A stretch of 64,000 nt of DNA, from contig CAIIXF020000001.1 in the NCBI GenBank assembly GCA_903813345.2, positions 8,432,001 to 8,496,000 on the forward strand, in the 5' to 3' direction. The translations under genes and the position numbers were made by a program. This document shows, piece after piece, positions 1-31,641 of this stretch. Every line of letters starts with the position of its first letter. Position 1 is the first letter of the stretch. This stretch comes from Owenia fusiformis. Taxonomy: Eukaryota. The notes under the pieces are model-generated. The model saw nothing but the letters and a program-made list of their open reading frames with translations. It was not told the DNA's origin and did not search any database.

Positions 1-1440
1 CTGCATGACACTTTCAATTTCTAAAATATTTACTCTGTATCCCCGGATTTTCACCTGAAAATCTCTTCGACCTTGGTAAAATATCCTCCCATCGACTATC
101 TTAGCAAAATCTCCCACTCTGAACAGAAATTCATGGCCTTCGCTTGGTAGGATTGTATTTTTGACAAACATGTTCATTCTGCTTATTTCAGTATAGCCAG
201 TTGTTAAGCAACCTCCACTGCAGAGCACTTCCCCAGTCTCACCCTTTGGTACTGGCTGTAAGTTCTCATCAACGATATACACATTCGAATTGTATGTTGG
301 GACTCCAATAGACATAATGTTGTCATTCATTTTTTTCTCAGCATCTTCCAACGATGAAAAAATATCGATGGTAGTATCACCCGCTGTCTCCGTGGAGCCA
401 TAACCGTTAATGAGGGTGTGCCCATCAGAGAAATAACTGAAGAAATCTCGAACGAGAACAGTTGATACAACCTCACCTCCGAGGATGATAAATTTGAGAT
501 GGGACAGGCGATTTTTGATTGGATGCATATTGAGACAGACCAACATATTTCGCAAAAGGACCGGAACACAGGCTAGTCTAGTGATGTTATATTGCTCAAT
601 TGCTTTGATCAACATCTCGGGATCTTGTTTCATTGCCCTTGGCAAAATAATCAAGGGTCGTCCCTTCAGTAACCATGTGTACATTTCCCTAATTGAATCC
701 ACAAACAACAAGTCTAACAAGGCACATCCAGTCTCATCTTGTTTGAATGGGGTTTTATCCCAGTAGTAATTGATTATGTTCAGCTGACTGGCATGGGTCA
801 GCTTCACTCCTTTAGGGGTGCCGGTGCTTCCCGAGGTGAACAGTGTGCAAATCAGTGGATTTTCCCCCGTAAGACCACTCTTCATCAGGGCAAAATCAGC
901 ATCAGTCAAGTTGGTATCTTCAACAGTTGTACAAGAGTCAGCTTCAATTTCATCAAGTATCGAGTCTATGTTTAACACAGGGACTGCTTGGATGGTCGGA
1001 TTGTTAGCATTAGATCCACATGCAAATATGCAAATCGGTTTGCATTCATCCATTATGTACTGCAAACGTTTTGGAGGAAAGACAGAACTCATAGGGGCAT
1101 ATGCACTTCCAAGTTTCAGTATGCTCATCAAAGCGATCACTCGTCTTGCACTGGGTTCCATAAACACGGATATTGTTTTGTCGGGGGAATTCAATGCATC
1201 TATACCGTTATCCACCATTCGTTTCAGTACAATTCGAGCAACCATATTTGCCCTTTTGTTGAGCCGTCCAAAGGTCAGAGTTTCCTCCCCAAATTGGACA
1301 GCCATTTGATTTTCAATTGGTTCCATTCCATTTGATGTATCAATTGTGCCTTTAACAGTGTTTTCAAATACTTTATGAATGAAGTCACCGCCGTTATCAT
1401 TCTCCTCTCCCCTAAGAATACTAAGTGGTCGTTCAGACAT
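1..1440 (-). CDS. ebony: Ebony-like NRPS paralog 1, N-terminal 480 codons (adenylation domain); continues beyond the left edge
   Basis: ATG at 1440 directly follows a splice acceptor (tttgcag|ATG). Colinear with 17017-18456 at constant offset 17016. Motifs LFTSGSTGTPKGV, FVDSIREMY, NGYGSTETAGD, FRVGDF, GRRDFQVKIRGYRV. No stop-terminated ORF is reported in this frame, consistent with the frame being open to the edge. Confidence 0.88.
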   Translation of the reverse strand, partial: MSERPLSILRGEENDNGGDFIHKVFENTVKGTIDTSNGMEPIENQMAVQFGEETLTFGRLNKRANMVARIVLKRMVDNGIDALNSPDKTISVFMEPSARRVIALMSILKLGSAYAPMSSVFPPKRLQYIMDECKPICIFACGSNANNPTIQAVPVLNIDSILDEIEADSCTTVEDTNLTDADFALMKSGLTGENPLICTLFTSGSTGTPKGVKLTHASQLNIINYYWDKTPFKQDETGCALLDLLFVDSIREMYTWLLKGRPLIILPRAMKQDPEMLIKAIEQYNITRLACVPVLLRNMLVCLNMHPIKNRLSHLKFIILGGEVVSTVLVRDFFSYFSDGHTLINGYGSTETAGDTTIDIFSSLEDAEKKMNDNIMSIGVPTYNSNVYIVDENLQPVPKGETGEVLCSGGCLTTGYTEISRMNMFVKNTILPSEGHEFLFRVGDFAKIVDGRIFYQGRRDFQVKIRGYRVNILEIESVMQ

Positions 1441-1519
1441 CTGCAAACATAAGAATGGCATATGCACTGTTTGAACTTAAAGTATAAAGTGGGCATAAAC
1501 ACAGTGGTTTTTATTAAAA

Positions 1520-1882
1520 CAATATGTTTTCTTTCAAGTGAAGTACCCATGATGATAAAAATATCAATTGAACAATTCGAAAAATTTTGAATAGGGACCC
1601 CATGACAACATTTTTTCAAAATATTGAACCTATTTAATCAAAAGAGAATCTTCCTTTTCTGATTTTTATTGCATGAAAAGATTATTCAACAAGGGGTCTA
1701 AAACATCCTCAAAAATATAAAGGTAATTGAGAGTCTAGTTTTGAAGTTATCAATTTTCGATGACCAAAATTATGCTGAAAACAATGGATAGCACGAGTTT
1801 TCCCTATGGGAAAAAATAACATGGGATATGTGGTTTTAACTTTAATGCATTTCAATACCCATCCCCTTTTCAAAAATTGTTA

Positions 1883-1923
<41 letters not shown>

Positions 1924-3230
1924 TCAAGTAATAATTTAATACAATTCAAGTACAAGCTTCATTAAATACAAGTAGTTCTTTCATATAGATATATGTACTA
2001 TGTATATAAATCATTTTTAAATAGTAATAATAACAATTATTACATGATCTTACTGACTCCATTCACACCCATTCATTACATTCGTGCATGCATTCATTCA
2101 CCCACTATTCATACATTGACTATGACACAAATTTGTAAAATAAGAATTTATTTGTGTATTCATAAAAGTCTATATAAAGCATGTATGTCTACACCCTTTT
2201 GATCAAGCAGCTTAACACTGTTCAAATATATTCTCAGATAATTGGAAAATTTGAAAAAGTAAGGTAATTCTTTTTCTAAAAAAGATTTGTGTATGACATA
2301 TTTCATAATTAATATGCACAGATTTAGTTCTGCACCTTTTTCTATATTCCCGATAATACCTAATAAAATATCATTTTCAGTTAGATTTAATTCTTTATTT
2401 AGTTTTAGTTTCCACCATTCAATAAATTGCTTCCATATATCTTTTGTTATTCTACACTTTACCAGCATGTGCTCCATGGTATGAGTATCATCACACCATG
2501 GACATTTGTCTGTCTGTGAAATGTTCATCATTTTTAATTTACGGTTGCACACTAGTGTATTCGTAAGTATTTTGTACTGAAAGCTCCATATTTTAGTTTC
2601 ATATGTAACCTTTTTTGCAAGTGTATAATAGTATTTCATGTCATTTTCATTTACATTGTTATTTTGTATCCACTTTGTTAGTGATGTGGGTTTCTCGATT
2701 TCTTTTTCAAGGATTTTGTTGTAAATAGCTTTACACGACAATTGACTAGGGTTAGGAACATTTTTCTTTGAGGGGTTGTTTTTCAATATGCAATTTTTAA
2801 GAGTTTTCCATTTTTTGGGAATAGCACTGAGTATGCTGGCATACTTTAAAAAGTCTATAGGAATGTTGAATTTTCGTTCAAGTTCTGTCAGGGATAAATA
2901 GTTATTATCTCTGTCTAGGATGTCATAAATTGTTGCAATACCTGCTTGATGCCATGTTTTATAGTACACCATTTTATTATTGACTAGAATGTTTTTATTA
3001 TTCCATATAACTTCATCTTTAACATCATTCCAATTATTGACATCAAATTGTTAATATAGTGTAGAGGAGATTTTTGATATGTTTAAATTGAGAAAAACAA
3101 GATCCTCTCTTAAGAAATGAGCCTAACATTTTTTTAAAGTGCCAAGGTGGGGTCCTAATCAATAATTTTTCAAAGAGTTAATTTGATATTTTACTATCAT
3201 GGGGACTTAACTTGAAAGAAAACATTGTAT
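1520..3230. mobile_element. Degenerate fold-back/MITE (inverted arms ~1520-1670 and ~3085-3230) split by a LINE insertion
   Basis: tgttttctttcaagtgaagtacccatgat...aatatcaa is imperfectly reverse-complementary to ttgatattttactatcatggggacttaacttgaaagaaaaca. Exact termini are not resolved. Confidence 0.55.
1887..3044 (-). mobile_element. 5'-truncated L1/Tx1-like LINE (ORF2 C-terminal zf-RVT region) in the 5' intron of NRPS paralog 1
   Basis: ORF 2160-2972 contains FQYKIL...CPWC..HTMEHMLVKC. Poly(A) tail is the T-run at ~1886-1921. 13-bp TSD aaattgttaatat at 1874-1886 and 3045-3057. Confidence 0.9.
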
Positions 3231-4184
3231 TGATGGCCAGAAATTACTCATGGTGAAAGATATGACCATCTAAAATGACATGGACCTTTCTATTTTATTA
3301 TTCCTTTAGTCTGTGAAAATGACATGGCGGTCACATCATTTTTCTTTGCGAAATTAAAACCTAACTTGAAAACGCAACTCTGCGGAGAAGCAAATCCCAC
3401 CTAAGAAAGCATATCTATTAAATGGCTTGTAATGTTGTACATTATATGGTAGAAATAACCTAGGAAATCATAGAATCGTTTTTCTGTTGGAAAAGTTTAC
3501 GGCCCATGTGACTAAATTGAGTGACTATCAAGATCAAATCTCTTTGTAAGTAGATGGCTTATTACCATAAGGAATTGGTATATAAAATTTGGAACAAATC
3601 TGGTAACTGGTTACTGGCTCTGAGTTATCACAAAAAAATCATAATTTTCCTGAGAAATGGTAGCCATTTTGAATTCAGTATTTCTTCATGACCATGGTCC
3701 TATGCCAATAACCATATTCTGCGTAACACAAGCCTCTACGTCAACGCGGGCACACGAACGAATGAATGAACGGACGGGCGGCTTGTCTATATCCCTACGA
3801 ACTCCGTTCGGTGGGATAAAGATAAGCAATCAAATGACCACGATACACTATAATTTGGAAAATACATTCAAATTTTACATACAAAACTATGCTATTGTAT
3901 ATTTCAGATAAACTAGTTGTAAACATGTGGCTTTAACTTCTAAGGCGGGTTTCAGCAATGAGAATTTTCACGAGTAAAATATCTCAGTAAAAGCACCAAA
4001 ATACAAGTGGTCATGCATTCTATTAGCCAAAACACAAGCAAGACAATATAAACAAACGATCCAAAATATGAAAATGTTCCATATAATATGCCACCGCGGT
4101 CCTTTGTTTATTAATTGAGGTTTGATTGACGTACAGCAAGAACATTGAAAGGAATATTCGGATTGTAGTATAAAAGTGACTCAC

Positions 4185-4340
4185 CCTTTCAAAGTTTATT
4201 CTCATGAATCCAAACTTTTCAAAATCAGCTTTAAATGAAATAATCGCAAGACAATGTACAAAGTTCAAGGTAGTGCTTGACAATATCATATGTACATATA
4301 CAAGTATTACGTAATGTATATGATAAAGGTGTACACTGCA
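4185..4340 (-). other. Putative non-coding 5' exon of NRPS paralog 1
   Basis: The start codon follows an acceptor, so an upstream exon is needed. A GTGAGT donor at 4179-4184 lies in a block (~3985-4342) homologous to ~20045-20382 upstream of paralog 2, where the donor is retained (20196-20201). The upstream boundary is a guess. Confidence 0.45.
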
Positions 4341-5334
4341 GGCCCGTAGCCGGGAGGTGGAGAAGCTGGTCCAGAAATTTGAAATAAAAATCTGCTCCAT
4401 CAAGCTGGACTGAAATATTAAGCATTTACGTATTTTATAATACCATTAATACTTGAGTTATAGTGAAAACATATATAAATAATATGTCACCATTTTAAAG
4501 TTAAAAAAAAGAGACGTAGCCTTGCCCAAATCGGTATTTATATTTATCATACATTTTTTCAAGTAAATTAATGATTGAGGACTGGACAAAGTTTTTAGTT
4601 GTTGCCTAACGGGAGTTAATATTTTCTGCCCTGTTTCACTACTTACTAGAAATTCTTAAGCCCATAAAACTGGAAAAGACTTGCATAAACATATGACAGA
4701 ATTAATCTCCTCATGGTAATTGTCAAAGTAAAAGGTTACTTACTTGGATTCAGCTTAATAAAGATGTAAAGACGGGGAAAGCAGTGGTGAAGCTCTCAGC
4801 AGTTCGTACGGAGGTTAGCATGTTAGATAACGCTATTATAATTACCCTTCTTCCTGGCTTCTGATTGGTTGACCTACTTCCGAAAGTTCTGGCGGTCAGT
4901 TTGAAAGTTTTAAAACTAGCGCAGAAGACTACTCATTGACCTTATCAAAATTTTCTCTATATTAACCCATTATAGATTACAATGGTTATTCTTTTAATTA
5001 TTCTTAAGGTTATTTTATTTCCATATTTGAATCATTTAACATACGATGATACATGAATACATGAATATGGAGAAACAGGCCTACGTTTGCACATTATTGG
5101 CTTGAGAAAATACATTTTATACAGTGGATATTTACATGTGCAATAATTTACATAGATGCAGTGTTCAGATAGGATGAAGATGAGTGATGACGTTATGACA
5201 TTTGGCAAAGTACCGTAGCTATGACACCGGTTTCACAATATTTTGTTAATAAAATCTGATGATAGATTTATAAGTATGGAGTTAAGCTTTTAATTATCTG
5301 ATCTTGGTCTTAATAGAAATCAAGATAAATAAAA

Positions 5335-6004
5335 CACGGTGTATAACCCAAACGCTCCTACATGCACGACGGAGCGTTACATTTACGCGGAAACGCTCCG
5401 AAGCGAAATAAAATGGCGGCTAATGAAGATTCCACTATGACCGTAAGTGTTGTTTCTCTCGTTTCTCTTACATATCACATGTTATGGTGAAATATTATGT
5501 ATCATTCGATGAACAATACCGTGAGCAAAGATCTTATTTATTCAACTTCTGGTGGTAAACTGTTATTTGCTTGATCAAAGCTCCGTAGTGTAGATCGAAC
5601 GAATCTGAAGATGACGTTTCGACCACAAATTACGAATGGAATTTGACTAAAATATACGTTGGTGCTCTAATCTTGGCTCAACTAATCACATGTATCGACA
5701 AAAGGGGTTTTGACCGGTAGAATGACAAATACGTTTTTGAATTTTGATAACTATACTGCTTCGTATAGCTCTTCCTAATTGCTTCAAACGTCAACAGCCA
5801 GCCACGTACAACATGAATATCACACCCATCGAATGGTATACTCGAAATATGTAACTCATACCTCTTATTCCCATTATTGGGGAAATCGTCAGACGGCTCA
5901 TCATTCCCGCCAGCCAGTTTTCCTACTCCGGAGCATTTCTTTGTTTAATTTCAGTAATGAAACGCTCCGTCGTGCATGTAGGAGCGTTTGGGTTATACAC
6001 CGTG
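5335..6004. mobile_element. MITE with CAC...GTG termini and 5-bp TSD (Transib/CMC-like)
   Basis: Perfect ~44-bp TIR cacggtgtataacccaaacgctcctacatgcacgacggagcgtt. TAAAA flanks both ends (5330-5334, 6005-6009). Confidence 0.88.
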
Positions 6005-6907
6005 TAAAAGAGACCGACTTGGGCAAAGCGAAAAGAAATGTTACATTTTGAATTATAAATCTGGCGCCGTTTTCAATAACTTTTACTCCTAGCGTTATTG
6101 GACTTCAAACAGAAAAGAAGGTTAGTCGCAAATGATATACTAAAATGTACTCATTGCATGGAGTCAGTTAATTTCCTTTGGAATAACGAAACATATGAGT
6201 TAAAAATAATTTGTGAAGTTTTCTTAGTGTTTTTTATGAAAAATAGCATGTCCCGAGGGAACTTCCGTGGGAGGGTGTATATCAAATTCTAAATGCGCAA
6301 ACTACTAAATGATTATCTCAATCATCAGGTGATGTTATGATTATAAATGTACCCGATAATAATTTAAGTCTAGTCACATTTCATGTGGTTGACGATCATT
6401 TTGCTACTAACATTTTCTGTTTCAGAAGCACCTAGGATTTAAGCGCATGAGACTTTGAATGGGGATCAGGATCCCGTGAATGAGGGCGGGAGCCCAAGTT
6501 AGGCTTACTGACGTTATTTGTTTGCTGATTTTTGCCTTATTGAATTGATCATCATACCTGACAATAACCCAACTCATAGCCGAAATCATGATGATTCTTA
6601 TTCACAATTGTTAGTGTGAGAGACTGAGATAGATGGCACAAACACAATAGTTTAACAGCTTTGAGCTGATATGTGCGATCCTCCTCCAATGAAGAAATAG
6701 GGCAGACTCAAAAAGTCCTCTACGCTCCTCTATGTTCATTGTGAGGAATATGTATCCCATGGACCTTTTATGTTGACTGTGTCTGGCGATAACTAATTTT
6801 TTATACTGCTCAATATATATTTATATAAAACTAATCGGTGATATTCATAGATTCATAGATTTAATTGTTTCTAAGACATTCCGTTTCTTTTCCAATATAG
6901 AGCACTT

Positions 6908-9900
6908 CACTCAAGCCACGAATCTCTTTCACATTTGATCAATATAAAAGTTGAAAAAATGAAATTTTAGATTGAGATATAAATGCATATACCATTAGCC
7001 ATGGGGTTTAAGAAGCGTTTCTCAAAATATTTTTATTACCCTTCAAACAATTACTTGATTGTGCATCAAAACGTAAATAAACTCTTAAATTGCTGGTGTC
7101 GATGATGGTGCACACATAGGCTTACATTGATTCATGTTTCAAAATAAATTTTGAGTTTAAAGATGAAATAATGTATTAAGTTTGAATTATTTAATCACAT
7201 GAACAAAAATGAATTGCAATAGTTGTTGTTTATCTTAACAAGAGAATTTTATTAAGATAATTATTGAAATACATTGTTTTGAGTTTCCCTAAAGGTAATT
7301 AATTTCAAGATTTCGTTTTCTAAGCTAAATAATATGCCAAGTCAATTCGTCGATCGACAAAATGAATGTACAAATTAGACACACATGTCTTCTTACATCA
7401 AAATACAACATTGTTACGAATAGGTCAATCACTCCTCCTTGTGATATTGAACAAATATTTCACTCTATTGAGGTGAATACCTGTACATCTTTCACAAGTG
7501 ATATTCCACGAAGCCCGAAAGTGCTACAGGTATTCACCGAAAATAGAGTGAAATATTTGTTTTATTATATATGCATGTACACTCTAACATCAACTTTTCG
7601 TCTTCAGATATTTTTACGAATCTACTCGGTTCGTCTGCCATTTTGACTTACACTTTACTAAATTATTTACACTGAACGAAAACAAATTCTTTGAAAATTC
7701 CCGGGAGTGTGGGATATCGCTAGATATCTCACGGTTGTCTTATCTGATTAGCATTGCCATTGAATATCGCCAGATATCCCACGACATGTGTCCCGGTTTT
7801 GACCAATCATAATGTCGCTAGCTAGATAGTGATATAATAATAAGTGTTATTTAACAGTGTCGCTGATGGTCGCTTAGGTTTTTAAACAATAACGCCATAA
7901 TTTACACATTTAAGGTCGTATTTTATTGCAATTAAAGCATGTAAATATTTCTCCAATGAGTATCCCCTTTACACGAGAACATTTCCCGGAATCATGAAAC
8001 CAGTCGTGGCATTTAGAGCACTTGGACTGATCCATTCGAAATGCGATTGTAAATACGAATAATAGTTGACACTGCATGCCTTGCAAATATTTACAGTGTC
8101 TGTTCTTTTTATCGGGCCTCTCCCTTTCTTCTTCTCTCTGAAGACTTTGAACTTGTAGATGGGGTTCTAAAGGCCGACGCTTCAATGTGGTTGAAAGAGT
8201 GGAAACGTCGTAGGGTGTCGATGCTTTACTTGACGTACTGGGTGTCGGGTGTGCTCGTCGTGTGGTCAGTTTTGGTTTTAAAGATGGTAGCTCGGTGACC
8301 AGCTTAGCTGCCTGCTGGGTCTTCCTCACGGTAATAAGGTTGTTCCTTTGCCAACCACAGGGTGAGAATGACATATCTGTTCTGCATGCGTCAAAATAGC
8401 ACGATAATTCTCGCGTTTCAACAATATTATCGGAAACCCCTCTCACAGCATTGATTCGAAAGGTACCTGGTAAGCTTACTGGTTTAAGTCCAGTCGCCTT
8501 ATCTTCAATGTTTTAATAATGCGTTCTGGGATTTCTTGGATTTTCATTTGTGTCCTGGCAGTTTCACTTTTAGACTCTGAGCGTTCCCTTCAGTCTGGCG
8601 TGTTTTGATTGTTTCTATATAGGCCTACACTTGGCGTATGCGTGCCCTGTATTCCCGGGATGCTTTGTTGTTCTTTTCTCTGATCTGTTGAAGAGCTTCA
8701 GCAGACAGGTTATTTCTCGGTGTATACGTTCTTGCTCTAAGTAGCCTTTGATATCTTTCTTTTTCTTTCTCTCCCTGTACTGTAAGCCTAGTCTGTAGGG
8801 AACGACGGCACTTCTTGGCGTTGGTGAGTGCCATATTCTTATATCATCAGAAAGGTCTGATAAGTAAGACAGATATACTAATGAGAGTGTGGGAAGTTAT
8901 GCACATTAATAAAATGTCACAAAACTGATTATCCCAATGAAATATCTATTGTTTTACAATAGTGGCAAGAAATACATTTCGTCTAGTGGTACACTGAACG
9001 AAACGTTTATGAATTAAGAAATATCGGGGAATGTGCATCTATATTTGTCAGTGATTTTATAAGACTATGAACTGCTCAATCATCCCAATTCTTGTGTCAC
9101 ATTACCTTAGCATTTTAAGACAAACAGAATATGCATCATAAGTAAATAACATGATCTGCTTAATAGATTCAATTTTACTTATCACTATACGTTGTAGTCA
9201 CAGTGAACAATATACTGTAGGCTAAATCCTTAGCTCGGTATCACTGTAAAATACTACACATACAACAAAATAGTCATTCAATGAATGTAAGTTCATTCAA
9301 CAAATATATAGCGTTCGATTATACATGTGATCTACTTAATATGTGGATAGTATTTTGGAGTCGTATGTGGTGGAGTCGTTGATGGTCGTAAATATCTCAA
9401 TCTTTACGTGGTCAAAGAATAACATCAACAAAGCGTATTTTTATATAATCAATATATATTGAGACAAACCGTCAACACCATTACTTAACATTGAAACCTG
9501 ATTTTGATTGAAATCAGAGTGCAAAGACAACGTACTTGTAGAGTCGATGATGATTTTGAAAAATAGTACTTTACGTCGAAAAATACGTAACAAGCTAAAT
9601 ATGTTATATTCAAATGTATTGTAAAAATGTTTTACATCCGTTAATAAGGCAATTTATAATTTAAAGAAGTAAACGAGGAATTATCATGAATAGTGCAGAG
9701 GCTTCTCGACACTGTTGATTTCAAGCATGGTGTCGATGATGGTGCCTTCGAGGGCTACACATACTTAATGTCGATTTTCCAATAGTAAATTAGCAAATAA
9801 ATTAATTCCAGCTAACGCACAATAGACACGATGCAGTCTTTGTGATGAAATAGTCAATTATTATAACAAAATACGTTTCAGAATATAAAAAGTTACTGTC

Positions 9901-10140
9901 AATCAACATAAGGGTGATCGGTTACAAGGCAAAAAATGATAGTTTGGAATGTTCGACGATTGATAATGCGTTCAGCTTTTATAACCCTGATATAAAAACT
10001 AAATGATATTTTGCAGGATTAAGAGACGTTTAATTTGATACCAAATACTCATGGTAGAGCGTATATTAAATAGCGGAATAAAAACATATAGTCATGTTAC
10101 ATAAAATTCGTTATAATGAAAGGAATACGTGGCTTGAGTG
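6908..10140 (-). mobile_element. Internally deleted Chapaev-like (CMC superfamily) DNA transposon
   Basis: TIRs cactcaagccacg(a/t)at..ctttca and 4-bp TSD ACTT (6904-6907, 10141-10144). Remnant ORFs: basic N-terminus at 8625-8834, and C-terminus at ~7910-8505 (LPGTFRINAVRG...RELSCYFDAC, ending in a PHD-like CSKCHDWFH...CFNC). Confidence 0.75.
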
Positions 10141-10379
10141 ACTTACCAATATTCACCTGGAAGAGTGATTCTTTAAGACCGTCGTGGAATCCAATGTATC
10201 TGTTGCAGTATATCTATCTGCTCACTTGGTAAGCTGTATGAGAAATGAATACAACCATGTCCACACATGACTTTATTGTATATTTTCTTTTTACTTTTTC
10301 TTTTGTATTTACTTGTTAAAAGACATTTTATCTGATGAGTTACTCCAATAAGTAACCTAATTATGATTCTACTCGAAAG

Positions 10380-11240
10380 AGTCCAAGAGTCACTCGGATG
10401 ATTTACTAAAATAAGACGAAGAGTGACTCATATGAGACACGGTTAATAAATGAGTAATGAGTCAATCAAATGAGTTATTGTAAATCACTCGCAGGAGTCA
10501 CTTAAATGAGTCAAGGAGTTACTGAGTTGATGAGTTACTCGAATGAGTAAATGAGTCATTCGAATGAGCCCAGGAATTGCTTATATGAGTTGATGATTCA
10601 CTCGAATGAGTAAATGAGACACTCTAATGAGTCGATGAGTCACTCGAACGAGTAAATGAGTCACTCTTATGAGTTGATGAGTCACTCGAATGAGTTGATG
10701 AGCCATTCTAACGAGTTAATGAGTCACTCAAGTGAGTAATGTGTAGTCACTCGAGTGAGTAAATGAGGAATGTGTCACTCTTATGAATTGATGAGTCACT
10801 CGAATGAGTCGATGAGCTACTTATATGAGTAATGAGTCACTCTTATGAGTTGATGAGTCACTCGAATGAGTAAATGAGTCACTCGAATGAGTAAATGAGT
10901 AACAACTCGAATGAGTAAATGAGCTTCACGAATGATTCGATGAATTTAAATGAGTACTGAGTCACTCTGATGAGTTCATGAGTTACTCGAATGATTGAAT
11001 GAGTCACTCTGATGAGTTGATAAGTTACTAGAATGAGTAATAAGGCACTTGAATGAGTAAAAGAATCACTCGAATGAGTCAATGAATTACTCAAATGAGT
11101 AATGAGTCACTCGGATATGCAAATATGAGTTACTCTTATGAGTTGATAAGTCACTCGAATGAGTCAATGAGCAATGAAAATCTAGCTTGAGTCAATACGT
11201 AACTCGGATGAGTCAATGAGTCACTCGAACGAGTCAATGA
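10380..11240. repeat. Degenerate ~21-bp minisatellite (gagtcactcgaatgagtaaat)
   Basis: Tandem units are directly visible and contain more than 15 TGAGTCA motifs. Confidence 0.92.
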
Positions 11241-11289
11241 TCGACAGACCGCCATTATATTTACCCAAAATGCCCAACTTTTTAAAACA

Positions 11290-20042: not shown

Positions 20043-20869
20043 TGTCAGAAAAGCATCAAAATACAAGTGGCAACGCATTTTATTGGCCAAACCACAAGCA
20101 ATCCAAAATATACAAACGTTAGACTGCATCCGAAATATGAATGTAATTTTTCTCTATAATATGCTGCCGTGGAATTCGGATTTTAATATAAAGTTACTCA
20201 CCTTTACAAAGTTTATTCTCACAAATCCTAACAGTATTCAAAGTTAGCTCAAACCCAAAATACGTATGTAATTATGAAACAATCACAAAGCAATGTACAA
20301 TGTTCAAAGTAGTGGTTAACAATATCATATGTACATATTATTACGTAAGGTTAGTATATATGATAAAAGTGTACACTGCAGGTTTAGGTTCAGTGACCAG
20401 TTCATCAAGAAGGGTGAAAGAAAGTTGAACATCATAGTCATTCCAGTTTTTCTTTTTCTTTGCCAACCACACCATTTTCCTGCATTTGTTATTCTACAAT
20501 TGACTTGCAATGTCAGCCATTATAAATCTCCGAGTCTGTCGTGTCAATGACAAAACTTCCGAGGGAGGGTGTATTTCAAATTCTAAATGGGACTAAATGA
20601 TTATCTCAACCATTATCAGGTGATGTTATAAAGGTGCCAGATAATAATTGCATAAAATATTCACATATACGATAAAGTGGAAGGCGATCATTCTGATAGT
20701 AACATTTTCTGTTTGGCTAAGATTTAATTACCCTGCGTGCAGAGTCTAGTTAAACTACAATTAGACGAAGCTCTCTTTTAAGAAGTGAAGTCAAACGAAT
20801 GCAAAGGGTAAGATTTAATTTAAGCCCATCACGACTCTTTGAATTGTGAAATATATTAAGCACGAGGGT

Positions 20870-21148
20870 CAGGGGCGTAGCCAGCTTTCAGGCAGGGGGG
20901 GTGCGATCGCCGAAAATTTTTCAGTTTTCGGTCAGGGAGGGTGCGATTTTGCCATAAGCAACACAAAAAATTAAGATTTCTTTTGAATTTTACAAAAATT
21001 GATGCAACTTCCTTCAAAATTGAGCTAGAAGCTTCAAATAAAAAGCATTTTTAAAGCTCTTTTCTACCTCTATCCAATAGTCATATTTTCAAAGGTTATG
21101 GGGGGGGGTGCGATCGCACCCATCGCACCCCCCCTGGCTACGCCCATG
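20870..21148. mobile_element. hAT-like MITE (second copy at 24059-24338)
   Basis: Termini CAGGGGCGTAGCCAG / CTGGCTACGCCCATG with flanking direct repeat AGGGT. Confidence 0.75.
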
Positions 21149-21352
21149 AGGGTCTTGTATGAGACTGAATGGTAGTACCAGAGAGCCCGTGATTGAGGGC
21201 GGTAGCACATTGTACTTGCTCGCTAACTATTTTCCTTATTCAATGATTATCATTCTTACCAAAAAACCTTTTGGGCCCGGGTTTTTGGGCCTCCGTACAA
21301 TGCTAATTACATCCTTATTCCGAACACTCTCCCCTTTGCTATGGTACATGTA

Positions 21353-22002
21353 CAGGGTGTCCCGAAAGTATGACCCCCCCCCCCCCCCTAGGCAGACATA
21401 TACCAATGTTGTCATAGTATGTGTCATATATCATTTTAAAGCTTACCCAAAGTTACATTGATTCGCCAAGTATCATGGTTCAACTCTCAAATGTGAAAAA
21501 ATTACAGGCATTTCAAAATTTAGAGTTTGGTCAAAATTAAGTTCAATTTTCCACCAAATCGATAGTCAATGTGTCCTCTCGGGCCATTTTAACAGCAGCA
21601 ATTTTTTTCAGGTCGGATGGATATTGAGTTGGAAAAAGAGAATGGTAAGGGTAGAAAATCTAAGGAAACTCTTCTAAAGTGCCTCAACAGGTTTTAAGAG
21701 GGTTATAAAATTCCACACCCCTATTTGAAGGGCTTTTAAGGTCATAACTGAAAAGAATTGCTTGTGTTAACATGGTCAAGGGGGGACTCATTGACTAGTA
21801 ATGTGATGTAAAATTGAACTTTATTTTGACAAAACACCAACTTTTAAAATGACTGTAACTTTTTCCCATTTGGGAATTAAACCATGATACTTGGCAAATC
21901 AATGTAACTTTGGATAAGCTTTAAAATGATATATGACACATACTATGAGGACAGTGGAATATGTCTGCCTAGGGGGGGGGGTCATACTTTCGGGACACCC
22001 TG
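21353..22002. mobile_element. Tc1/mariner-type MITE (copies at 24543-25190 and ~54952-55556)
   Basis: TA|CAGGGTGTCCCGAAAGTATGACCCC...GGTCATACTTTCGGGACACCCTG|TA with long inverted arms. Confidence 0.88.
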
Positions 22003-22177
22003 TATATTCAAAACCTGGGACAAATAGCGTCATTCCGAGGCTTTTTGACTCTCACTTGTTCTACTATTACAAACAGGCGTCGGACAGGTGTATGGGTGTA
22101 ATGCATGCTTCAGGGCCGTCGGTAAATTTTCATAATATTCATATGAAGCCCTTGAGGTAAATAAACAACTGACAGAT

Positions 22178-22762
22178 ATGAATAAACAATCATGGCTCAC
22201 GCACATCAATGATGTACTTAAATATATTTACAATGGTACTTCACCGAACTATTTAAACTTAAAACCAAGAGAAATTAAGAAATTACTGGAAAATAGATAC
22301 ATACAATTTTGGGAAACTAAAATAAAATCAAATAATGGTAAATTGAGGTTTTATAAGATAATAAAAGCAAAATGGAACAAGGAACCCTACTTGGATTTAA
22401 TCAAAAATGAAATAGACAGAAATAACTTGACAAAGCTAAGAATTAGCGCACATAAATTAGAAATCGAAACAGGTCGTTACACAAAACCAATTACCCCTAT
22501 TGAAGAAAGAAAATGTTTAATGTGTAACAAGAAAACCGGTTCAGAATGTCATTACCTATTAGAATGCAATAAGTTAAAAGATGTTCGGTCAAGTTACATG
22601 GATAAAATAAAAAAACACTGTCAAAATTTAGAAAACATGAATAACGTGGAACATAAATTAATGTTTCTATTTAATTCAGAGGGAATAATATTAAATATAC
22701 TAGCAAAATATATATCTAATATTTTTATCGAGAGAGAAAAAAACACGAAATGCATCCAATAA
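22178..22762 (+). mobile_element. 3' fragment of a non-LTR retrotransposon ORF2 (Cys/His C-terminal region)
   Basis: LTKLRISAHKLEIETGRY...ERKCLMC...ECHYLLEC is typical of invertebrate LINE ORF2 tails. Confidence 0.8.
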
Positions 22763-22811
22763 AATCTTGCAATGATCAAGCACCCTTTGATTAGTTAATA
22801 TACTATATAGA

Positions 22812-23182
22812 TATGGTCATTTGATTATCTTTACTCAATAGAATTTTTAATTGGACTATAGCACTGTTCCACAACTGGATGACTCTAACTGCAGTTAGCT
22901 TCATTCAAGATGGTTGCCGAGATTCTTTCGTTTTCGATAAACCTCCGATTTCAGCTAAACTAAGTTGAATCTTGATTCCAAAAGTTTCGCCATGCAAATT
23001 AATAAAACTATGATTGTATTCAACCACAAATGAATGCTCTAACACCCATAATATTAGAGAATTTTAAAGAAAACGACTTCACTTAGAATGACTCTAACTG
23101 AAGTTGATGATCTACGCCATCATGACGTCATCATCAACTTCAGTTAGAGTCATTCTAAGTGAAGCCGTTTTCTTTAAAATTC
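22812..23182. repeat. 371-bp copy of 28934-29304 joining the two duplicated blocks
   Basis: Identical sequence at offset 6122. Junction microhomologies ta and attc. Confidence 0.92.
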
Positions 23183-26001
23183 ATTTTAATTTAGCGTTTT
23201 CCAGTCAATTGACAATCTTTCGAAAATAACATGTCAGAAAAGCATCAAAATACAAGTGGCAACGCATTTTATTGGCCAAACCACAAGCAATCCAAAATAT
23301 ACAAACGTTAGACTGCATCCGAAATATGAATGTAATTTTTCTCTATAATATGCTGCCGTGGAATTCGGATTTTAATATAAAGTTACTCACCTTTACAAAG
23401 TTTATTCTCACAAATCCTAACAGTATTCAAAGTTAGCTCAAACCCAAAATACGTATGTAATTATGAAACAATCACAAAGCAATGTACAATGTTCAAAGTA
23501 GTGGTTAACAATATCATATGTACATATTATTACGTAAGGTTAGTATATATGATAAAAGTGTACACTGCAGGTTTAGGTTCAGTGACCAGTTCATCAAGAA
23601 GGGTGAAAGAAAGTTGAACATCATAGTCATTCCAGTTTTTCTTTTTCTTTGCCAACCACACCATTTTCCTGCATTTGTTATTCTACAATTGACTTGCAAT
23701 GTCAGCCATTATAAATCTCCGAGTCTGTCGTGTCAATGACAAAACTTCCGAGGGAGGGTGTATTTCAAATTCTAAATGGGACTAAATGATTATCTCAACC
23801 ATTATCAGGTGATGTTATAAAGGTGCCAGATAATAATTGCATAAAATATTCACATATACGATAAAGTGGAAGGCGATCATTCTGATAGTAACATTTTCTG
23901 TTTGGCTAAGATTTAATTACCCTGCGTGCAGAGTCTAGTTAAACTACAATTAGACGAAGCTCTCTTTTAAGAAGTGAAGTCAAACGAATGCAAAGGGTAA
24001 GATTTAATTTAAGCCCATCACGACTCTTTGAATTGTGAAATATATTAAGCACGAGGGTCAGGGGCGTAGCCAGCTTTCAGGCAGGGGGGGTGCGATCGCC
24101 GAAAATTTTTCAGTTTTCGGTCAGGGAGGGTGCGATTTTGCCATAAGCAACACAAAAAATTAAGATTTCTTTTGAATTTTACAAAAATTGATGCAACTTC
24201 CTTCAAAATTGAGCTAGAAGCTTCAAATAAAAAGCATTTTTAAAGCTCTTTTCTACCTCTATCCAATAGTCATATTTTCAAAGGTTATGGGGGGGGGGTG
24301 CGATCGCACCCATCGCACCCCCCCTGGCTACGCCCATGAGGGTCTTGTATGAGACTGAATGGTAGTACCAGAGAGCCCGTGATTGAGGGCGGTAGCACAT
24401 TGTACTTGCTCGCTAACTATTTTCCTTATTCAATGATTATCATTCTTACCAAAAAACCTTTTGGGCCCGGGTTTTTGGGCCTCCGTACAATGCTAATTAC
24501 ATCCTTATTCCGAACACTCTCCCCTTTGCTATGGTACATGTACAGGGTGTCCCGAAAGTATGACCCCCCCCCCCCCTAGGCAGACATATACCAATGTTGT
24601 CATAGTATGTGTCATATATCATTTTAAAGCTTACCCAAAGTTACATTGATTCGCCAAGTATCATGGTTCAACTCTCAAATGTGAAAAAATTACAGGCATT
24701 TCAAAATTTAGAGTTTGGTCAAAATTAAGTTCAATTTTCCACCAAATCGATAGTCAATGTGTCCTCTCGGGCCATTTTAACAGCAGCAATTTTTTTCAGG
24801 TCGGATGGATATTGAGTTGGAAAAAGAGAATGGTAAGGGTAGAAAATCTAAGGAAACTCTTCTAAAGTGCCTCAACAGGTTTTAAGAGGGTTATAAAATT
24901 CCACACCCCTATTTGAAGGGCTTTTAAGGTCATAACTGAAAAGAATTGCTTGTGTTAACATGGTCAAGGGGGGACTCATTGACTAGTAATGTGATGTAAA
25001 ATTGAACTTTATTTTGACAAAACACCAACTTTTAAAATGACTGTAACTTTTTCCCATTTGGGAATTAAACCATGATACTTGGCAAATCAATGTAACTTTG
25101 GATAAGCTTTAAAATGATATATGACACATACTATGAGGACAGTGGAATATGTCTGCCTAGGGGGGGGGGTCATACTTTCGGGACACCCTGTATATTCAAA
25201 ACCTGGGACAAATAGCGTCATTCCGAGGCTTTTTGACTCTCACTTGTTCTACTATTACAAACAGGCGTCGGACAGGTGTATGGGTGTAATGCATGCTTCA
25301 GGGCCGTCGGTAAATTTTCATAATATTCATATGAAGCCCTTGAGGTAAATAAACAACTGACAGATATGAATAAACAATCATGGCTCACGCACATCAATGA
25401 TGTACTTAAATATATTTACAATGGTACTTCACCGAACTATTTAAACTTAAAACCAAGAGAAATTAAGAAATTACTGGAAAATAGATACATACAATTTTGG
25501 GAAACTAAAATAAAATCAAATAATGGTAAATTGAGGTTTTATAAGATAATAAAAGCAAAATGGAACAAGGAACCCTACTTGGATTTAATCAAAAATGAAA
25601 TAGACAGAAATAACTTGACAAAGCTAAGAATTAGCGCACATAAATTAGAAATCGAAACAGGTCGTTACACAAAACCAATTACCCCTATTGAAGAAAGAAA
25701 ATGTTTAATGTGTAACAAGAAAACCGGTTCAGAATGTCATTACCTATTAGAATGCAATAAGTTAAAAGATGTTCGGTCAAGTTACATGGATAAAATAAAA
25801 AAACACTGTCAAAATTTAGAAAACATGAATAACGTGGAACATAAATTAATGTTTCTATTTAATTCAGAGGGAATAATATTAAATATACTAGCAAAATATA
25901 TATCTAATATTTTTATCGAGAGAGAAAAAAACACGAAATGCATCCAATAAAATCTTGCAATGATCAAGCACCCTTTGATTAGTTAATATACTATATAGAT
26001 A
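23179..26001. repeat. Segmental duplication copy 2
   Basis: Mirrors 19990-22813, including identical ORFs (e.g. 25366-25950 equals 22178-22762). Confidence 0.95.
25366..25950 (+). mobile_element. Duplicate copy of the LINE ORF2 3' fragment
   Basis: Identical translation to 22178-22762. Confidence 0.8.
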
Positions 26002-26439
26002 ATTAGTTAAGCTTTTTCATTTTTTTTCTGTTTAAGCTGTACACTTTGCCCAAATGTGGGATACAAGTATAATAAAGCTCATAATAATATGATGATGGGG
26101 TGGTGACCTGATTCACAACCGACAAAACACAATCAAACACAACTAGTACCAAATTAACACAATACAAATTAATAAAATACAATCTGGCACAACCAACTAA
26201 AAACCAACATAACACAACTAGGCACAATCTGTTGTACGACCAATAAAACACGACCAAATAGGGACACGGACCATGTTATGTTCCATGTAAAGAACATAAC
26301 ATGGATTACCACCATACTCATGAGTTCGAACATCAGCAGCTATTATATGATTGACTTTGACACATGATCAGATAGTAAAATAGAGAAGGTCTACAACAGG
26401 ACTGGGATGTACAAGTTTGTTAATTTAACAATGCTACTT

Positions 26440-26492
26440 TAAAAAGATGGCAGCACTTCTGTATATTATATATGGGCGTAACCCGGAAGTAA
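26440..26492 (+). promoter_or_regulatory. Putative GGACT core promoter (YY1-like AAGATGGC, ETS motif CCGGAAGT)
   Basis: The motifs lie ~80-125 bp upstream of the ATG at 26568. Motif evidence only. Confidence 0.4.
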
Positions 26493-26567
26493 TAACAATT
26501 GACCTTGACATGTTTCCAGATGAACAAAATACAAAATCAATTTAGAATTTTCTCCAATATCTCCAAA

Positions 26568-26750
26568 ATGCAGAGGATATTTGTTTATGGTACCTTGAAA
26601 AAAGGTCAGCCTAACCATAAGTTCATCGCTGATGCTGAGAATGGAAGTTGTATTTTTATAGGAACTGGGAGAACAGTAGACAAGTGGCCACTTGTAATTG
26701 CTTCAAAGTACAACATTCCCTTTTTACTGGACAATAAAGGGCATGGGAAG
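26568..26750 (+). CDS. GGACT: Gamma-glutamylamine cyclotransferase, shared coding exon 1 (61 aa; alternative in-frame ATG at 26520)
   Basis: MQRIFVYGTLKKGQPNH...WPLVIASKYNIPFLL..GHGK carries the GGCT/AIG2-fold FVYGTL motif. Phase-0 donor AAG|GTAAAG at 26751. Confidence 0.92.
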
Positions 26751-26879: not shown

Positions 26880-28053
26880 CTATCTATTGCAAGACTTATG
26901 CCTACCACAACCGTCGCCATGTAAATCAGTGTTTTTAAGTAGCGCAAGGATCCTACCATGACCGTGGTAGTGTTATCGTGTAAGCCTGGTATAACCGTGA
27001 CAGGCTGGTATAACCGTGACAATGCTGTATTATATTGCAAGGCCTGTCATGATCCTGGAAGTGTTATCTGGAAGCCTGGCGCGACCGTAGCCTTTATTGT
27101 GGTTTATAAGCGAACGTGAATATTAATGTATAGTAGTTATTTTGATTTTGACATGATTAAGGTAGTTAAACCCCATGATCATAGTATTAAACTGTTTAAT
27201 TGTAATGACGATCACTTAAAATTATTAAGGATATTCCTGGCATTAATGTCATACATATTTACTAGTCATTGCAATACATTATAACGGTCATAGTAGGACT
27301 AAGCCTAAAGTTCTACATTACCACCCTCATACCTGGCCTTGCAATACTATATTACATTGTCACGGTCATACCAGGCTTTGCGATCCCATAATACATCGTC
27401 ATGGTCATGCCAGGTTTTGAAATACACATTCTCACGGTCACTTATAGCAATTATAAATTTCTACATTACCACTCTCATACCCGAACTTGGAATACTATAT
27501 CACATTGCCACGGCGGTCTTACCAAGCCTTGCAATACTATATTACATTGTCACGGCCATGCCAGGCCTTGCAGTACTATATTACATTGCCACGGTCATGC
27601 CAGGCTTTGCAATACACATTGTCACGGTTATAGCAGTCCTAATCGTAAATTTCTACATTTCCACTCTCATACCTGAACTTGCAATACTATATTACTATAC
27701 ATTGTCACGGCCATGCCAGGCCTTGCAGTACTATATTACATTGCCACGGTCATGCCAGGCTTTGCAATACACATTGTCACGGTTATAGCAGTCCTAATCG
27801 TAAATTTCTACATTACCACTCTCATACCTGAACTTGCAATAATATATTACATTGTCACGGCCATGCCAAGCCTTGCAGAACTATATTACATTGTCATGGT
27901 CATGGCAGGCATTGCAATATAATACAGCATTGTCGCGGTTATACCAGGCTTTCACGATAACATTACCACGGTCATGGCAGGATCCTTGCGCTACTTAAAA
28001 ACACTGAATAACATGGTGACGGTTACGCCAGGCGTTAGTCTTGCAACAGATAG
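26880..28053. mobile_element. Fold-back element in the GGACT intron with an internal ~39-bp tandem array
   Basis: ~170-bp imperfect inverted arms (gtgtttttaagtagcgcaaggatcct / aggatccttgcgctacttaaaaacac). Internal repeats of cttgcaatactatattacattgtcacggccatgccagg at ~27335-27920. Confidence 0.8.
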
Positions 28054-29501: not shown

Positions 29502-30037
29502 TATAGAGTCTGAAAAAACATTGGATTGGATTGTAAAACTGAAAGCCATAGTACAGTGTAGTATTCCAGTTCCAGGTGACCATGGTGTTCCGCTTCCGTA
29601 TCAGTTCTCAGTCTAATTGAAAGCCAATGGTCAAGAACTTTATCAATAGAAACACTAACAATAATGTGTATCTTCGAAGTATCTTCTGTCTTCTTCGAAA
29701 TTCTATCAGCTATTGTATCAAAACCATCTTACTTGTGACCTCAAATGACCTTTGAATTACCCTGAGCGCAGAGGTTAGCTAAAAGTAATGAAAACTTCAA
29801 AAGTGCGAACAAAGCTTCAGTTATACATGTACGTACAGTATTGAATAATTGACCAACAACTGATCCAAATCAGAGAGTTTTGAATTCAGTACCTTTTGAA
29901 GAATTTTCACTAAGAAGATCGTTATTTTATATAGCTTATATATGACCTTTTCAGAGCGGCCATCCATGACCTCAATAATGTTGACCTTTTACAATCTCAG
30001 ATTTGAATAAGGTCCAATTGCTTACTTTTGATTCCAG

Positions 30038-30316
30038 AGAGTCACTGGTGAAGTCTACAGTGTCAATCCACAACTAAAGGCAATTTTGGACAAACTTGAA
30101 ATCAAATATCAAGAAATAGAACTAGACGTAGAGCTAGACAATCAACAAGAAGAAACTAAATGTTCATGTTATGTGATTAACAATTTTAAACAGGAGCTGA
30201 TGGAACTTGATCTACTGGAGAGCTACATCGATGTTGAACTACGATTTGTCAGACTTCAGGATAGGGAACCCAATGACTTTTATGATTATATAACTGATGT
30301 TCGCAATTTACCTTAA
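30038..30316 (+). CDS. GGACT: GGACT terminal exon 2a (gives a 153-aa isoform)
   Basis: Acceptor cttttgattccag|AGA, phase 0. Translates RVTGEVYSVNPQLKAILDKLE...CYVINNFKQEL...LESY...*. AATAAA downstream at ~30450 and ~30571. Confidence 0.8.
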   Translation, partial: RVTGEVYSVNPQLKAILDKLEIKYQEIELDVELDNQQEETKCSCYVINNFKQELMELDLLESYIDVELRFVRLQDREPNDFYDYITDVRNLP

Positions 30317-31245
30317 ACTAAAATTTCCAACTGGAGATTTGTAGTAATGTTTCCCTCATAATGACATGAATGAGTGCCCATGCATAGTTTTTAGACGACC
30401 CTTCGAAATTAGAGCGCTACAAGATGTTATCTGAGAGTCTGGAGCCATCAATAAAGCAGATAAAAGAATATCTGGTGTGCATTAATAGTGGACAGCAATT
30501 AGCAAATTGATTTTAATGCCTCCTTAAATGCTCTACAAAGGTTGTGTTATAACACATTTATGCACTAACTAATAAATTATTCTATTTAACCGAAAATTAG
30601 GAATTGAGCTTTGATAGTATTTTGTGATTGTCATAAAAAGTTAACATCACATGAATATTTATAATGACTAAATGTTTATTTATATGTGGGTATTGGTAGT
30701 ATTGTTTTATATTAAAAGAAACTCAAAAAACTATTTTGCACCTTCTTCATGGTGTTTATCAAATTATTTAGTACATTTACTAATATAGTAGTAATATAGG
30801 AAATATACATAGAACCTGAACTGCATAAATAATTAATCCTTTTGTTTTTTTAATTTTTTATTATAATATTCGATTAAATTGGACTAAAAGGATAACACAT
30901 TCTCTCATTCACTCCTTTCCTTTATGCAAAAGATAAGCAAAAAATGTCATTAAGTCATCAGTTTTGTCATGGGGTTTCTCTTGAAAGTCCATGGTTTTGT
31001 GAAGTGTTTGATGAATTGAATAATGAACATACCCTGTTTTTTATGTCAATTACAGCTGCAAAGGTAAACTAAAGGCCCTCTCTATCAGTTTAGTCAATCT
31101 GGAAAACTTTGACAAGATATGGAACACTATTGTCTCTGGAATACCATGAATATCACAGACAAGTAGTTACTGTATCATTCACGAAACCTTCTTGTTGGCA
31201 GGCACCTACAGATTCTTAAGCGAGAAAATACATTTTACTTTACAG

Positions 31246-31641
31246 AATGTCCTTGGAGAAATTTACGAAGTTGACTCAAAGATGGCAGCATTTCTGGATG
31301 AATTTGAGGATTGTCCAAAGTGGTACCAACGTGACCCCATTACTGTTGAACTTTTAAATGAACCTGATAACTCAGTCAGTATCAAAGATCAAGCCATGGA
31401 GGTAGAATCTGAAGTAAATAAAATAACAGGAACATCCACCCAAGAATGCATAGTGTATAAACTAAAGGCTTTCAAGGATGAACTTTCAAAGTTACCCACC
31501 ATCATGGATTATGATGGTTTCAAAGAACCTGTTTATGATAGTAAGGCAGACAATGAAATACCATATGGTATATACAACAATTATGATCCTATTGGTGATA
31601 CAGTAGATTCTGAAAAATTGAAGAAGTTGGGGATTGTATAA
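31246..31641 (+). CDS. GGACT: GGACT terminal exon 2b (gives a 192-aa isoform)
   Basis: Acceptor ttttactttacag|AAT, phase 0. NVLGEIYEVDSKMAAFLDEFEDCPKWYQR is the canonical catalytic segment. AATAAA at ~31859. Confidence 0.88.
   Translation, partial: NVLGEIYEVDSKMAAFLDEFEDCPKWYQRDPITVELLNEPDNSVSIKDQAMEVESEVNKITGTSTQECIVYKLKAFKDELSKLPTIMDYDGFKEPVYDSKADNEIPYGIYNNYDPIGDTVDSEKLKKLGIV

Follow-up and report, generated by a model that had tools for sequence, protein, structure and literature searches.

A duplicated Ebony-type synthetase with a remodelled acyl-binding pocket beside a GGACT gene in the annelid Owenia fusiformis

The products of Ebony-family nonribosomal peptide synthetases (NRPSs) inactivate transmitters, build cuticle or act as reproductive signals. 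Here we analyse a 64,000-nucleotide stretch of nuclear DNA (the window) from the annelid Owenia fusiformis, which carries two Ebony-like genes, NRPS-A and NRPS-B, next to a gene for the γ-glutamylamine cyclotransferase GGACT, and describe an acyl-binding pocket in the NRPS pair that departs from that of every other sequence examined. Conceptually the locus resembles the insect Ebony/Tan cycle in pairing an amide synthetase with an enzyme able in principle to undo its reaction; Tan and GGACT come from different enzyme families, and in Drosophila the ebony and tan genes are not known to be neighbours. Among the closest described systems, the flatworm NRPSs, Sm-NRPS of Schistosoma mansoni and planarian nrps, are likewise lophotrochozoan members of the Ebony family: they make β-alanyl-tryptamine, their products act as signals, and the planarian paralogues differ in expression (PMC11214079). 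Unlike the Owenia pair, these enzymes have been shown to use β-alanine. Annelid adenylation (A) domains had already been placed in the Ebony clade by a published survey (PMC10531068). Other studies concern γ-glutamylated amines: γ-glutamyl conjugation of monoamines is described in gastropods (PMC6454038), γ-glutamyl serotonin is called “a known annelid metabolite” with reference to Sloley 1994 (PMC7954447), an Aplysia γ-glutamylhistamine synthetase is listed among the references of PMC4472778, and GGACT acts on γ-glutamylamines (PMC4919911). No gene named for γ-glutamyl or β-aspartyl monoamine conjugation was found in the literature searched.

A first-pass annotation of the window had read the locus as an animal metabolic gene cluster, with at least two Ebony-like NRPS genes divergent from GGACT and a transporter of the major facilitator superfamily (MFS) as the next gene; the background chemistry on which it drew, γ-glutamyl monoamines in molluscs and annelids, is borne out by PMC6454038 and PMC7954447. 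At least two Ebony-like genes are indeed present, NRPS-A in full and NRPS-B in part (480 codons), as judged by Pfam, tblastn and a match to the Ebony structure 6dym. An 860-aa open reading frame (ORF) of the window is 100% identical to a public Owenia protein on a 62.2-Mb scaffold, P0005 (CAH1772778.1). With this protein (877 aa) as the query, tblastn aligned aa 1-832 at 18456..15961 and aa 833-877 at 15760..15626, both at 100% identity, which gives a two-exon gene, NRPS-A, at 15623-18456 on the minus strand (877 aa, stop codon 15625-15623). The ORF 15913-18495 (minus strand) matches the Pfam families AMP-binding (PF00501, E 2.1e-62), AMP-binding_C (PF13193) and PP-binding. NRPS-B, at 1440..1 on the minus strand, aligns over aa 1-480 at 90.8% amino acid identity to P0005 (tblastn) and has its own AMP-binding match (E 1.9e-61). 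The parts of the two genes are as follows:

15961..18456, minus strand: NRPS-A exon 1, aa 1-832: adenylation domain, carrier domain with Ser614, larger part of the CN domain (Pfam; 100% identity to P0005)
15761..15960, minus strand: NRPS-A intron, 200 bp, GT..AG (tblastn model and splice ends)
15623..15760, minus strand: NRPS-A exon 2, aa 833-877 and stop, end of the CN domain (tblastn with P0005, 100% identity; AG acceptor, TAA stop)
1..1440, minus strand: NRPS-B, first 480 codons, continuing past the window edge (Pfam, tblastn, self-BLAST)

By its sequence, NRPS-A is an Ebony-type single-module NRPS composed of an A domain, a carrier (T) domain and a CN domain. The invariant columns of the A-domain core motifs are all present in P0005 (T202, S203, G204, G207, P209, K210, Y347, G348, E351, G443, D444 and K549). 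The carrier domain matches PF00550 (E 2.3e-4, 21.8 bits against a cut-off of 20.8) and places Ser614 in a column that is 100% Ser. The sole PDB match to aa 680-853 is the CN domain of Ebony (6dym, E 3.6e-9), and across the T and CN domains P0005 retains 21 of the 26 columns with at least 75% conservation, the invariant Ser614 among them; the conserved CN residues S724, E807, N826 and T831 are kept too. An AlphaFold2 model of P0005, built from a 34-sequence alignment, has a mean confidence (pLDDT) of 84.9, and Foldseek superposes its A-T part on solved NRPS modules such as 4d4i (target TM-score 0.93, rmsd 2.4, 527 columns). NRPS-A has the A-T-CN layout of Drosophila Ebony. It is about as long (877 aa; the insect proteins P0027 and P0017 have 859-861 aa), belongs to the same clade of the tree, and shares with Ebony the 6dym-like CN domain, the phosphopantetheine serine and the pocket residues Val235, Asp236, Gly330, Asp331 and Lys517. 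It is only 28-31% identical to the insect enzyme, and the variable part of its pocket is different.

To describe the pocket, we read ten specificity positions in P0005, with the columns checked against HMMER alignments to solved A domains; the positions are numbered as in GrsA. Domain 1 of 8xjz_C reads D, V, W, H, V, S, L, I and D at the pocket columns, which agrees with the serine code. The resulting codes are:

P0005 and P0002 (this window): VDRAILGGDK
Insect Ebony: VDCVWCFGDK
Owenia P0007: VDTVVTLGDK
Owenia P0125: VDTVFCLGDK
Owenia P0127: VDSVVCFGDK
Owenia P0129: VDTTVSLGDK
Cyanobacterial homologues: VDWIWVLGDK

P0005 and P0002 were compared with 44 other sequences, comprising family members and four outgroup homologues. 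Both keep Val235, Asp236, Gly330, Asp331 and Lys517. β-Amino-acid-activating domains typically have the Asp shifted by one position. The variable positions 239, 278, 299, 301 and 322 are another matter: the family typically has a small polar residue at 239, Val at 278, Trp or Val at 299, Cys or Ser at 301 and Phe, Leu or Tyr at 322, and P0005 and P0002 depart from this at every position, with R, A, I, L and G (insect Ebony has C, V, W, C and F). Relative to the family, the residues at 278 and 322 are smaller, 301 is larger and 239 is basic. Among the 44 other sequences, Arg at 239 is found in none and Gly at 322 in two. Residues that are unique relative to 35 other family members occupy 4 of 9 code positions in P0005, compared with 62 of 494 positions elsewhere in its A domain (one-sided Fisher p 0.02), and 11 of 12 control sequences have either no unique code position or one among the nine.

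The change extends upstream of the A4 motif. Here the family and the cyanobacterial homologues have in common two signatures, NRLxWQW and KT(S/A), which are 86-97% conserved and are lost in NRPS-A: P0005 and P0002 alone replace R222, W225, Q226, K241 and T242, with I, Y, Y, L and L. The two sequences from the window are identical at the code positions, and the stretch 218-256 differs between them only at 223. The four other Owenia proteins keep the family-typical pocket and both signatures. There are precedents that associate a basic residue at 239, or basic residues nearby, with a substrate carboxylate: Glu-activating A domains have Lys at 239, the aminoadipate domain of ACV synthetase, where the distal carboxyl is activated, has Arg, and in VinN basic residues bind the extra carboxylate of 3-methylaspartate. 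Since the acyl pocket differs from that of every other sequence examined, a donor other than β-alanine, possibly an acidic one, is plausible. The NRPS-A/NRPS-B pair probably no longer prefers β-alanine, and by analogy with these precedents it possibly takes a carboxylate-bearing amino acid, either Asp through its β-carboxyl or Glu through its γ-carboxyl.

Four non-animal homologues, cyanobacterial and others (P0039, P0047, P0052 and P0114; 814-888 aa, 90-94% of the query covered), have the shifted-Asp pocket together with NRxxWxW; KT is present in three of them, and TS in P0114. The C-terminus of P0114 contains GNAT acetyltransferase Pfam domains. This is a hint of bacterial counterparts to the A-T-acyltransferase layout of Ebony.

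The two genes of the window are close relatives. In self-BLAST, the DNA of 1-1457 matches 17017-18473 at 94% identity, and the duplication stops 17 bp upstream of the ATG, so the regions upstream of NRPS-A and NRPS-B are unrelated. Over the 480 codons that can be compared there are 44 amino acid and 88 nucleotide differences, corresponding to a synonymous divergence (dS) of 0.143 and a non-synonymous divergence (dN) of 0.043. The ratio dN/dS of 0.30 indicates purifying selection on both copies since the duplication. The reading frames are open across 877 codons in NRPS-A and across the 480 codons of NRPS-B in the window; the pair appears to have duplicated recently, with both copies apparently functional. 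That the altered code is identical in both copies, despite a dS of 0.14 and with a dN/dS of 0.30, argues for constraint on the new pocket. NRPS-B was not found as a separate protein among the 120 matches listed for the NRPS homologue search.

When the C-terminal 180 residues of exon 1 were searched against 1.84 billion representative proteins, 50 relatives were found, of which 27 reach at least 700 aa. Looking up 23 family proteins gave 12 named clusters, from Owenia, the nemertean Tubulanus, a scorpion, a springtail, an ostracod, a lobster and a priapulid; there was no mollusc among these 12. A maximum-likelihood tree was built from 37 rows of the 46 sequences, the omitted ones being the partial P0002, three near-duplicates and five C-terminal-domain matches that did not align over the A-domain pocket (P0143, P0147, P0148, P0149 and P0168); these five were also excluded from the comparisons of signatures, unique residues and conserved T and CN columns. 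It separates the animal Ebony-like proteins from the four cyanobacterial-type homologues at a Shimodaira-Hasegawa-like approximate likelihood-ratio (SH-aLRT) support of 100. P0005 groups with Owenia P0007 and P0006 at 86, a branch that is not starred, inside a 19-row clade (98) that also contains nemertean proteins.

At least six Ebony-like genes, spread over three chromosomes, are present in Owenia: besides NRPS-A and NRPS-B, a 37.3-Mb scaffold carries P0007 and P0125, and a 39.8-Mb scaffold P0127 and P0129. The four genes outside the window, all on chromosomes other than that of the NRPS pair, have the same architecture and 29-36% identity to NRPS-A, and P0007 is among its nearest relatives in the tree. 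Their accession numbers lie hundreds apart, so they apparently form no tandem pairs; the family expansion is sizeable. What is new here is a duplicated Ebony-family paralogue with a remodelled pocket, in an annelid family of at least six genes. Horizontal transfer or contamination was considered as the origin of the intron-poor NRPS and rejected: the gene has a spliceosomal intron, lies on a 62-Mb scaffold amid animal genes and groups with animal Ebony-like genes.

RNA reads were mapped across 14800-19200, with about 6% of each run read. Over the NRPS-A exon body (15976-18474, 17 bins), depth was 0-3.2 in the RNA-seq runs X14 and X15; 15 of the 17 bins were covered in X14, all 17 in X15 and 4 in X16, which is sparse. 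The first mate always fell on the plus strand and the opposite direction was zero in 17 of 17 bins in all three RNA runs, as would be expected of a stranded library and an mRNA from the minus strand. The three RNA runs, in which depth was too low, listed no joint across the NRPS-A intron, so splicing of this gene rests on the public annotation and the GT..AG ends. A search of sequencing runs with an NRPS stretch listed no RNA run, and 12 contig runs shared 0.67-0.76 of its words. Run X1 covers the NRPS intron and intergenic DNA and is thus DNA-like and uninformative on expression. On either side of NRPS-A, at 15094-15387 and 18475-18768, RNA-seq depth reaches 65-130, compared with about 1 for the gene; most reads there fit only partly, and joints of the “opposite strands” kind occur at 15218-15355. 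These two segments look like transcribed dispersed repeats with inverted-repeat structure.

The genes in the window are ordered NRPS-B (minus strand), NRPS-A (minus strand), GGACT (plus strand) and a putative MFS transporter (minus strand). NRPS-A and GGACT are direct neighbours in divergent orientation, with approximately 8.1 kb between their start codons (18457-26519), and no ORF with a Pfam protein family was found in this spacer, in line with the first-pass description of only repeats between the two genes. The consecutive accessions of P0005 (CAH1772778.1) and the GGACT protein P0179 (CAH1772779.1) fit with there being no annotated gene between them. The remaining features of the window are:

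2160..13928, minus strand: spacer between the NRPS copies, with retroelement remnants and no recognised cellular gene (Pfam on ORFs)
19990..26001, no strand: two tandem copies of a repeat unit, 99.9% identical (self-BLAST)
26520..26750, plus strand: GGACT exon 1, with the YGTL motif and the Ile50 equivalent (Pfam PF06094; P0179 aa 1-77 at 100% identity)
27314..27949, no strand: minisatellite in GGACT intron 1 (Tandem Repeats Finder; self-BLAST)
30038..30316, plus strand: GGACT last exon 2a, used in the public P0179 (Pfam; tblastn with P0179, 98.9% identity)
31246..31641, plus strand: GGACT last exon 2b, not in P0179 (Pfam; PDB alignment to mouse GGACT; phase-0 AG acceptor)
43619..52028, minus strand: putative MFS transporter exons (ORF translations; sub-threshold MFS_1; protein-atlas score)

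The identification of GGACT held up on all three exons, each of which exceeds the PF06094 cut-off of 22.8 bits: exon 1 over profile positions 1-53 (E 1.3e-8, 35.8 bits), exon 2a (30038-30313) over 54-110 (E 2.2e-7, 31.9 bits) and exon 2b (31246-31638) over 55-90 (E 1.5e-7, 32.4 bits). The annotated start is at 26520, and the Met at 26568 is the one that lines up with other GGACTs. The gene has one first exon and two alternative last exons, of which the public P0179 (169 aa) joins exon 1 to 2a; all splice phases fit, and exons 2a and 2b each have a phase-0 AG acceptor. Identity between exon 1 and the listed proteins of the GGACT family is 50-67%, and P0179 is the only Owenia entry among the 120 matches listed of 340 significant ones. 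Exon 2a is 28% identical to Lingula and frog GGACT (E 4e-5 and 0.037), with a divergent tail and a 3-residue deletion after the Glu82 equivalent; exon 2b is 36-37% identical to the same proteins (E ~1e-13) and has the Glu82, Tyr88 and Tyr115 equivalents. Exon 2b is thus the more canonical second half, yet it is absent from P0179. A homologue search with the raw 163-aa exon 2b ORF, intron-derived residues included, gave 19 candidates, none significant.

The catalytic site of mouse GGACT comprises Tyr7, Gly8, Thr9, Leu10, Ile50, Glu82, Tyr88, Tyr115 and Tyr143 (PMC2954230). Eight of these nine residues could be placed and are conserved in both Owenia isoforms, the Tyr143 equivalent lying outside the aligned region, and P0179 aligns with mouse GGACT (1vkb) at E 3.3e-23. 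The gene resembles human and mouse GGACT (A2LD1; 3jud, 1vkb, 2kl2) in its PF06094 matches and these eight catalytic equivalents, and differs from them in its two alternative last exons, the 3-residue deletion in 2a and the longer C-terminus of 2b. The two isoforms are not special to this locus: in Lingula, isoforms X3 (P0188) and X2 (P0189) share their first 66 residues and differ likewise in their second halves, so the alternative last exons predate the Owenia locus. Mutually exclusive GGACT last exons may be old in lophotrochozoans. By these resemblances the gene is an ordinary conserved γ-glutamylamine cyclotransferase, with predicted activity. Its intron 1 contains a minisatellite (27314-27949) with a 39-bp unit in 16 copies and a 155-bp higher-order period.

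Taken together, we give about even chances to a combination of two things: a changed acyl donor in the NRPS pair, and a GGACT neighbour that is there by coincidence. By family precedent, the adenylation domain would activate a small amino acid with ATP, the amino acid would be loaded as a thioester on the phosphopantetheine arm at Ser614, and the Ebony-type CN domain would transfer the acyl group to a free amine and release an N-acyl amine. The acyl pocket appears rebuilt, in that the residues that hold the amino group are kept and the variable wall and the upstream signature are replaced, which would suit a donor other than β-alanine; the most likely one would be a β- or γ-amino acid with an extra carboxylate, that is, Asp linked through its side-chain carboxyl or Glu through its γ-carboxyl. 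GGACT, 8 kb away across repeats, would most likely be there by coincidence and not as part of a selected gene cluster, and the MFS gene would be an unrelated neighbour.

Several observations weigh against this combination. One control, P0132, also has 4 of 9 unique code positions (p 0.057). The branch leading to P0005 is long (0.96, compared with 0.56-0.65 for its nearest kin) and unique residues make up 12.6% of its other A-domain positions; general divergence therefore explains part of the pocket signal. Two conserved positive charges, R222 and K241, are lost in P0005 and P0002, and the family Lys241, Ser243 and neutral 251 have become Leu241, Asp243 and Arg251; from the sequence, Arg251 could pair with Asp243, as a compensatory charge swap that leaves the substrate unchanged. 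The logic that connects code to substrate derives from bacterial A domains. At a likeness of 95%, it is not certain that the RNA reads derive from copy A; some may come from copy B. As to the neighbour, coincidence is the default for the NRPS-GGACT adjacency and not a result, and if the product were a γ-glutamylamine, its breakdown would be expected of GGACT whatever the position of the GGACT gene.

Some of these points are also what would be expected if NRPS-A and NRPS-B were ordinary β-alanyl-amine synthetases next to an unrelated GGACT, their pocket changes being drift or compensation in a fast-evolving recent duplicate. All characterised family members, those of flies, schistosomes and planarians, use β-alanine (PMC11214079). 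Val235, Asp236, Gly330, Asp331 and Lys517 are kept, K241L, S243D and T251R look like a charge swap, the P0005 branch is long, and redundancy among at least six Owenia Ebony-like genes could relax constraint. We nevertheless regard this as somewhat unlikely: unique residues are enriched at the code positions (4 of 9, compared with 12.6% elsewhere), the replacements of Phe/Leu/Tyr322 by Gly and of Cys/Ser301 by Leu are large changes in side-chain volume, and the altered code is the same in both copies despite a dS of 0.14 and a dN/dS of 0.30. That one or both copies are decaying or unexpressed duplicates without a current enzymatic role is very unlikely. The low RNA depth, with about 6% of each run read, the lack of an intron-spanning read among those listed and the lack of a separate NRPS-B protein among the 120 matches listed would all fit such decay; against it stand frames open over 877 and 480 codons with a dN/dS of 0.30, the presence of all invariant catalytic motifs and of Ser614, and strand-specific transcription over the whole gene body.

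The first-pass annotation had proposed a functional reason for the adjacency, namely that the NRPS pair makes γ-glutamyl or other acidic acyl amines and GGACT, in the manner of Tan, cleaves them to the amine and 5-oxoproline. The remodelled pocket makes the first half of this plausible: with Arg at 239 and less bulk at 278 and 322, it would suit a longer, carboxylate-bearing substrate, and the family Asp residues for the distal amino group are kept. γ-Glutamyl monoamines are reported from gastropods and an earthworm (PMC6454038, PMC7954447), and no gene is named for a γ-glutamyl-monoamine synthetase in the literature searched. The GGACT catalytic residues are intact in both isoforms, and the two genes are direct divergent neighbours. 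Their adjacency is the only link between them; the spacer is 8.1 kb of repeats, GGACT is a conserved orthologue with a conserved isoform layout and a history of its own, and the upstream region of NRPS-B differs from that of NRPS-A. Arg251 may be compensatory, and a β-aspartyl substrate fits the retained β-amino-type pocket at least as well, in which case GGACT could not cyclise the product. The 12 named Ebony-family clusters (23 proteins looked up) include no mollusc, so the classic gastropod synthetase is probably another type of enzyme; the bacterial γ-glutamylpolyamine synthetases are glutamine-synthetase-like. On balance we find a make/break pair with a functional adjacency improbable. 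Of the broader claim of a metabolic gene cluster in an animal, what stands is that non-homologous genes are physically adjacent; what separates them is 8 kb of repeats and not a compact shared promoter.

If the changed donor preferred above is real, a paralogue pair whose acyl pocket is both rebuilt and conserved would widen Ebony-family chemistry and point to new N-acyl-amine metabolites in annelids. The NRPS pair would then be a candidate for the ATP-dependent γ-glutamyl or β-aspartyl conjugation of monoamines that biochemical work has described in gastropods and earthworms from the 1980s onwards. It is doubtful that NRPS-A and NRPS-B represent the first donor switch in the Ebony family, as an annelid γ-glutamyl-monoamine synthetase whose amine is regenerated by GGACT; were this so, NRPS and GGACT would form an Ebony/Tan-like cycle built from different parts. 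If β-alanine is still used, what remains is an ordinary duplication, specific to the lineage, next to a housekeeping gene.

The two NRPS copies are separated by approximately 14 kb, in which the ORF 2160-3050 (minus strand) matches zf-RVT (E 4.4e-6). Three further ORFs in this interval, 4023-4445, 7910-8512 and 13173-13928, match no Pfam family at E<=0.01; the second of them (minus strand, 200 aa) has a Cys/His-rich C-terminal stretch that resembles a PHD-type zinc finger. Most of the spacer between NRPS-A and GGACT is taken up by a 2.8-kb unit in tandem, at 19990-22813 and 23179-26001 (99.9% identity, offset 3.19 kb), which is either a very recent duplication or an assembly artefact, and other pieces of this spacer recur elsewhere in the window by self-BLAST. 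Each tandem unit carries an identical 208-aa ORF (22136-22762 and 25324-25950) with a Cys/His-rich tail and no Pfam family.

Beyond GGACT, the putative MFS gene lies approximately 12 kb away in convergent orientation; the first pass had likewise made it the next gene. Of its exons, taken singly, one has a sub-threshold match to MFS_1 (E 1.5e-4, 21.2 bits, below the cut-off of 33.4), and another scores 0.94 to MFS_1 clusters in the protein atlas. The gene may resemble MFSD14/HIAT1. The nine ORFs between GGACT and the MFS gene match no Pfam family at E<=0.1, except for one chance-level match (E 0.067). Within an intron of the MFS gene, a low-complexity block at 48935-49700 is open in several frames on both strands, encodes Pro/Ser/Phe-rich repeats and yields many spurious ORFs of 60-143 aa. 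Near the end of the window, the ORF 63341-63694 (minus strand, 117 aa) is Pro/Gly/Asn-rich and without a Pfam match; possibly it is an exon that belongs to another gene.

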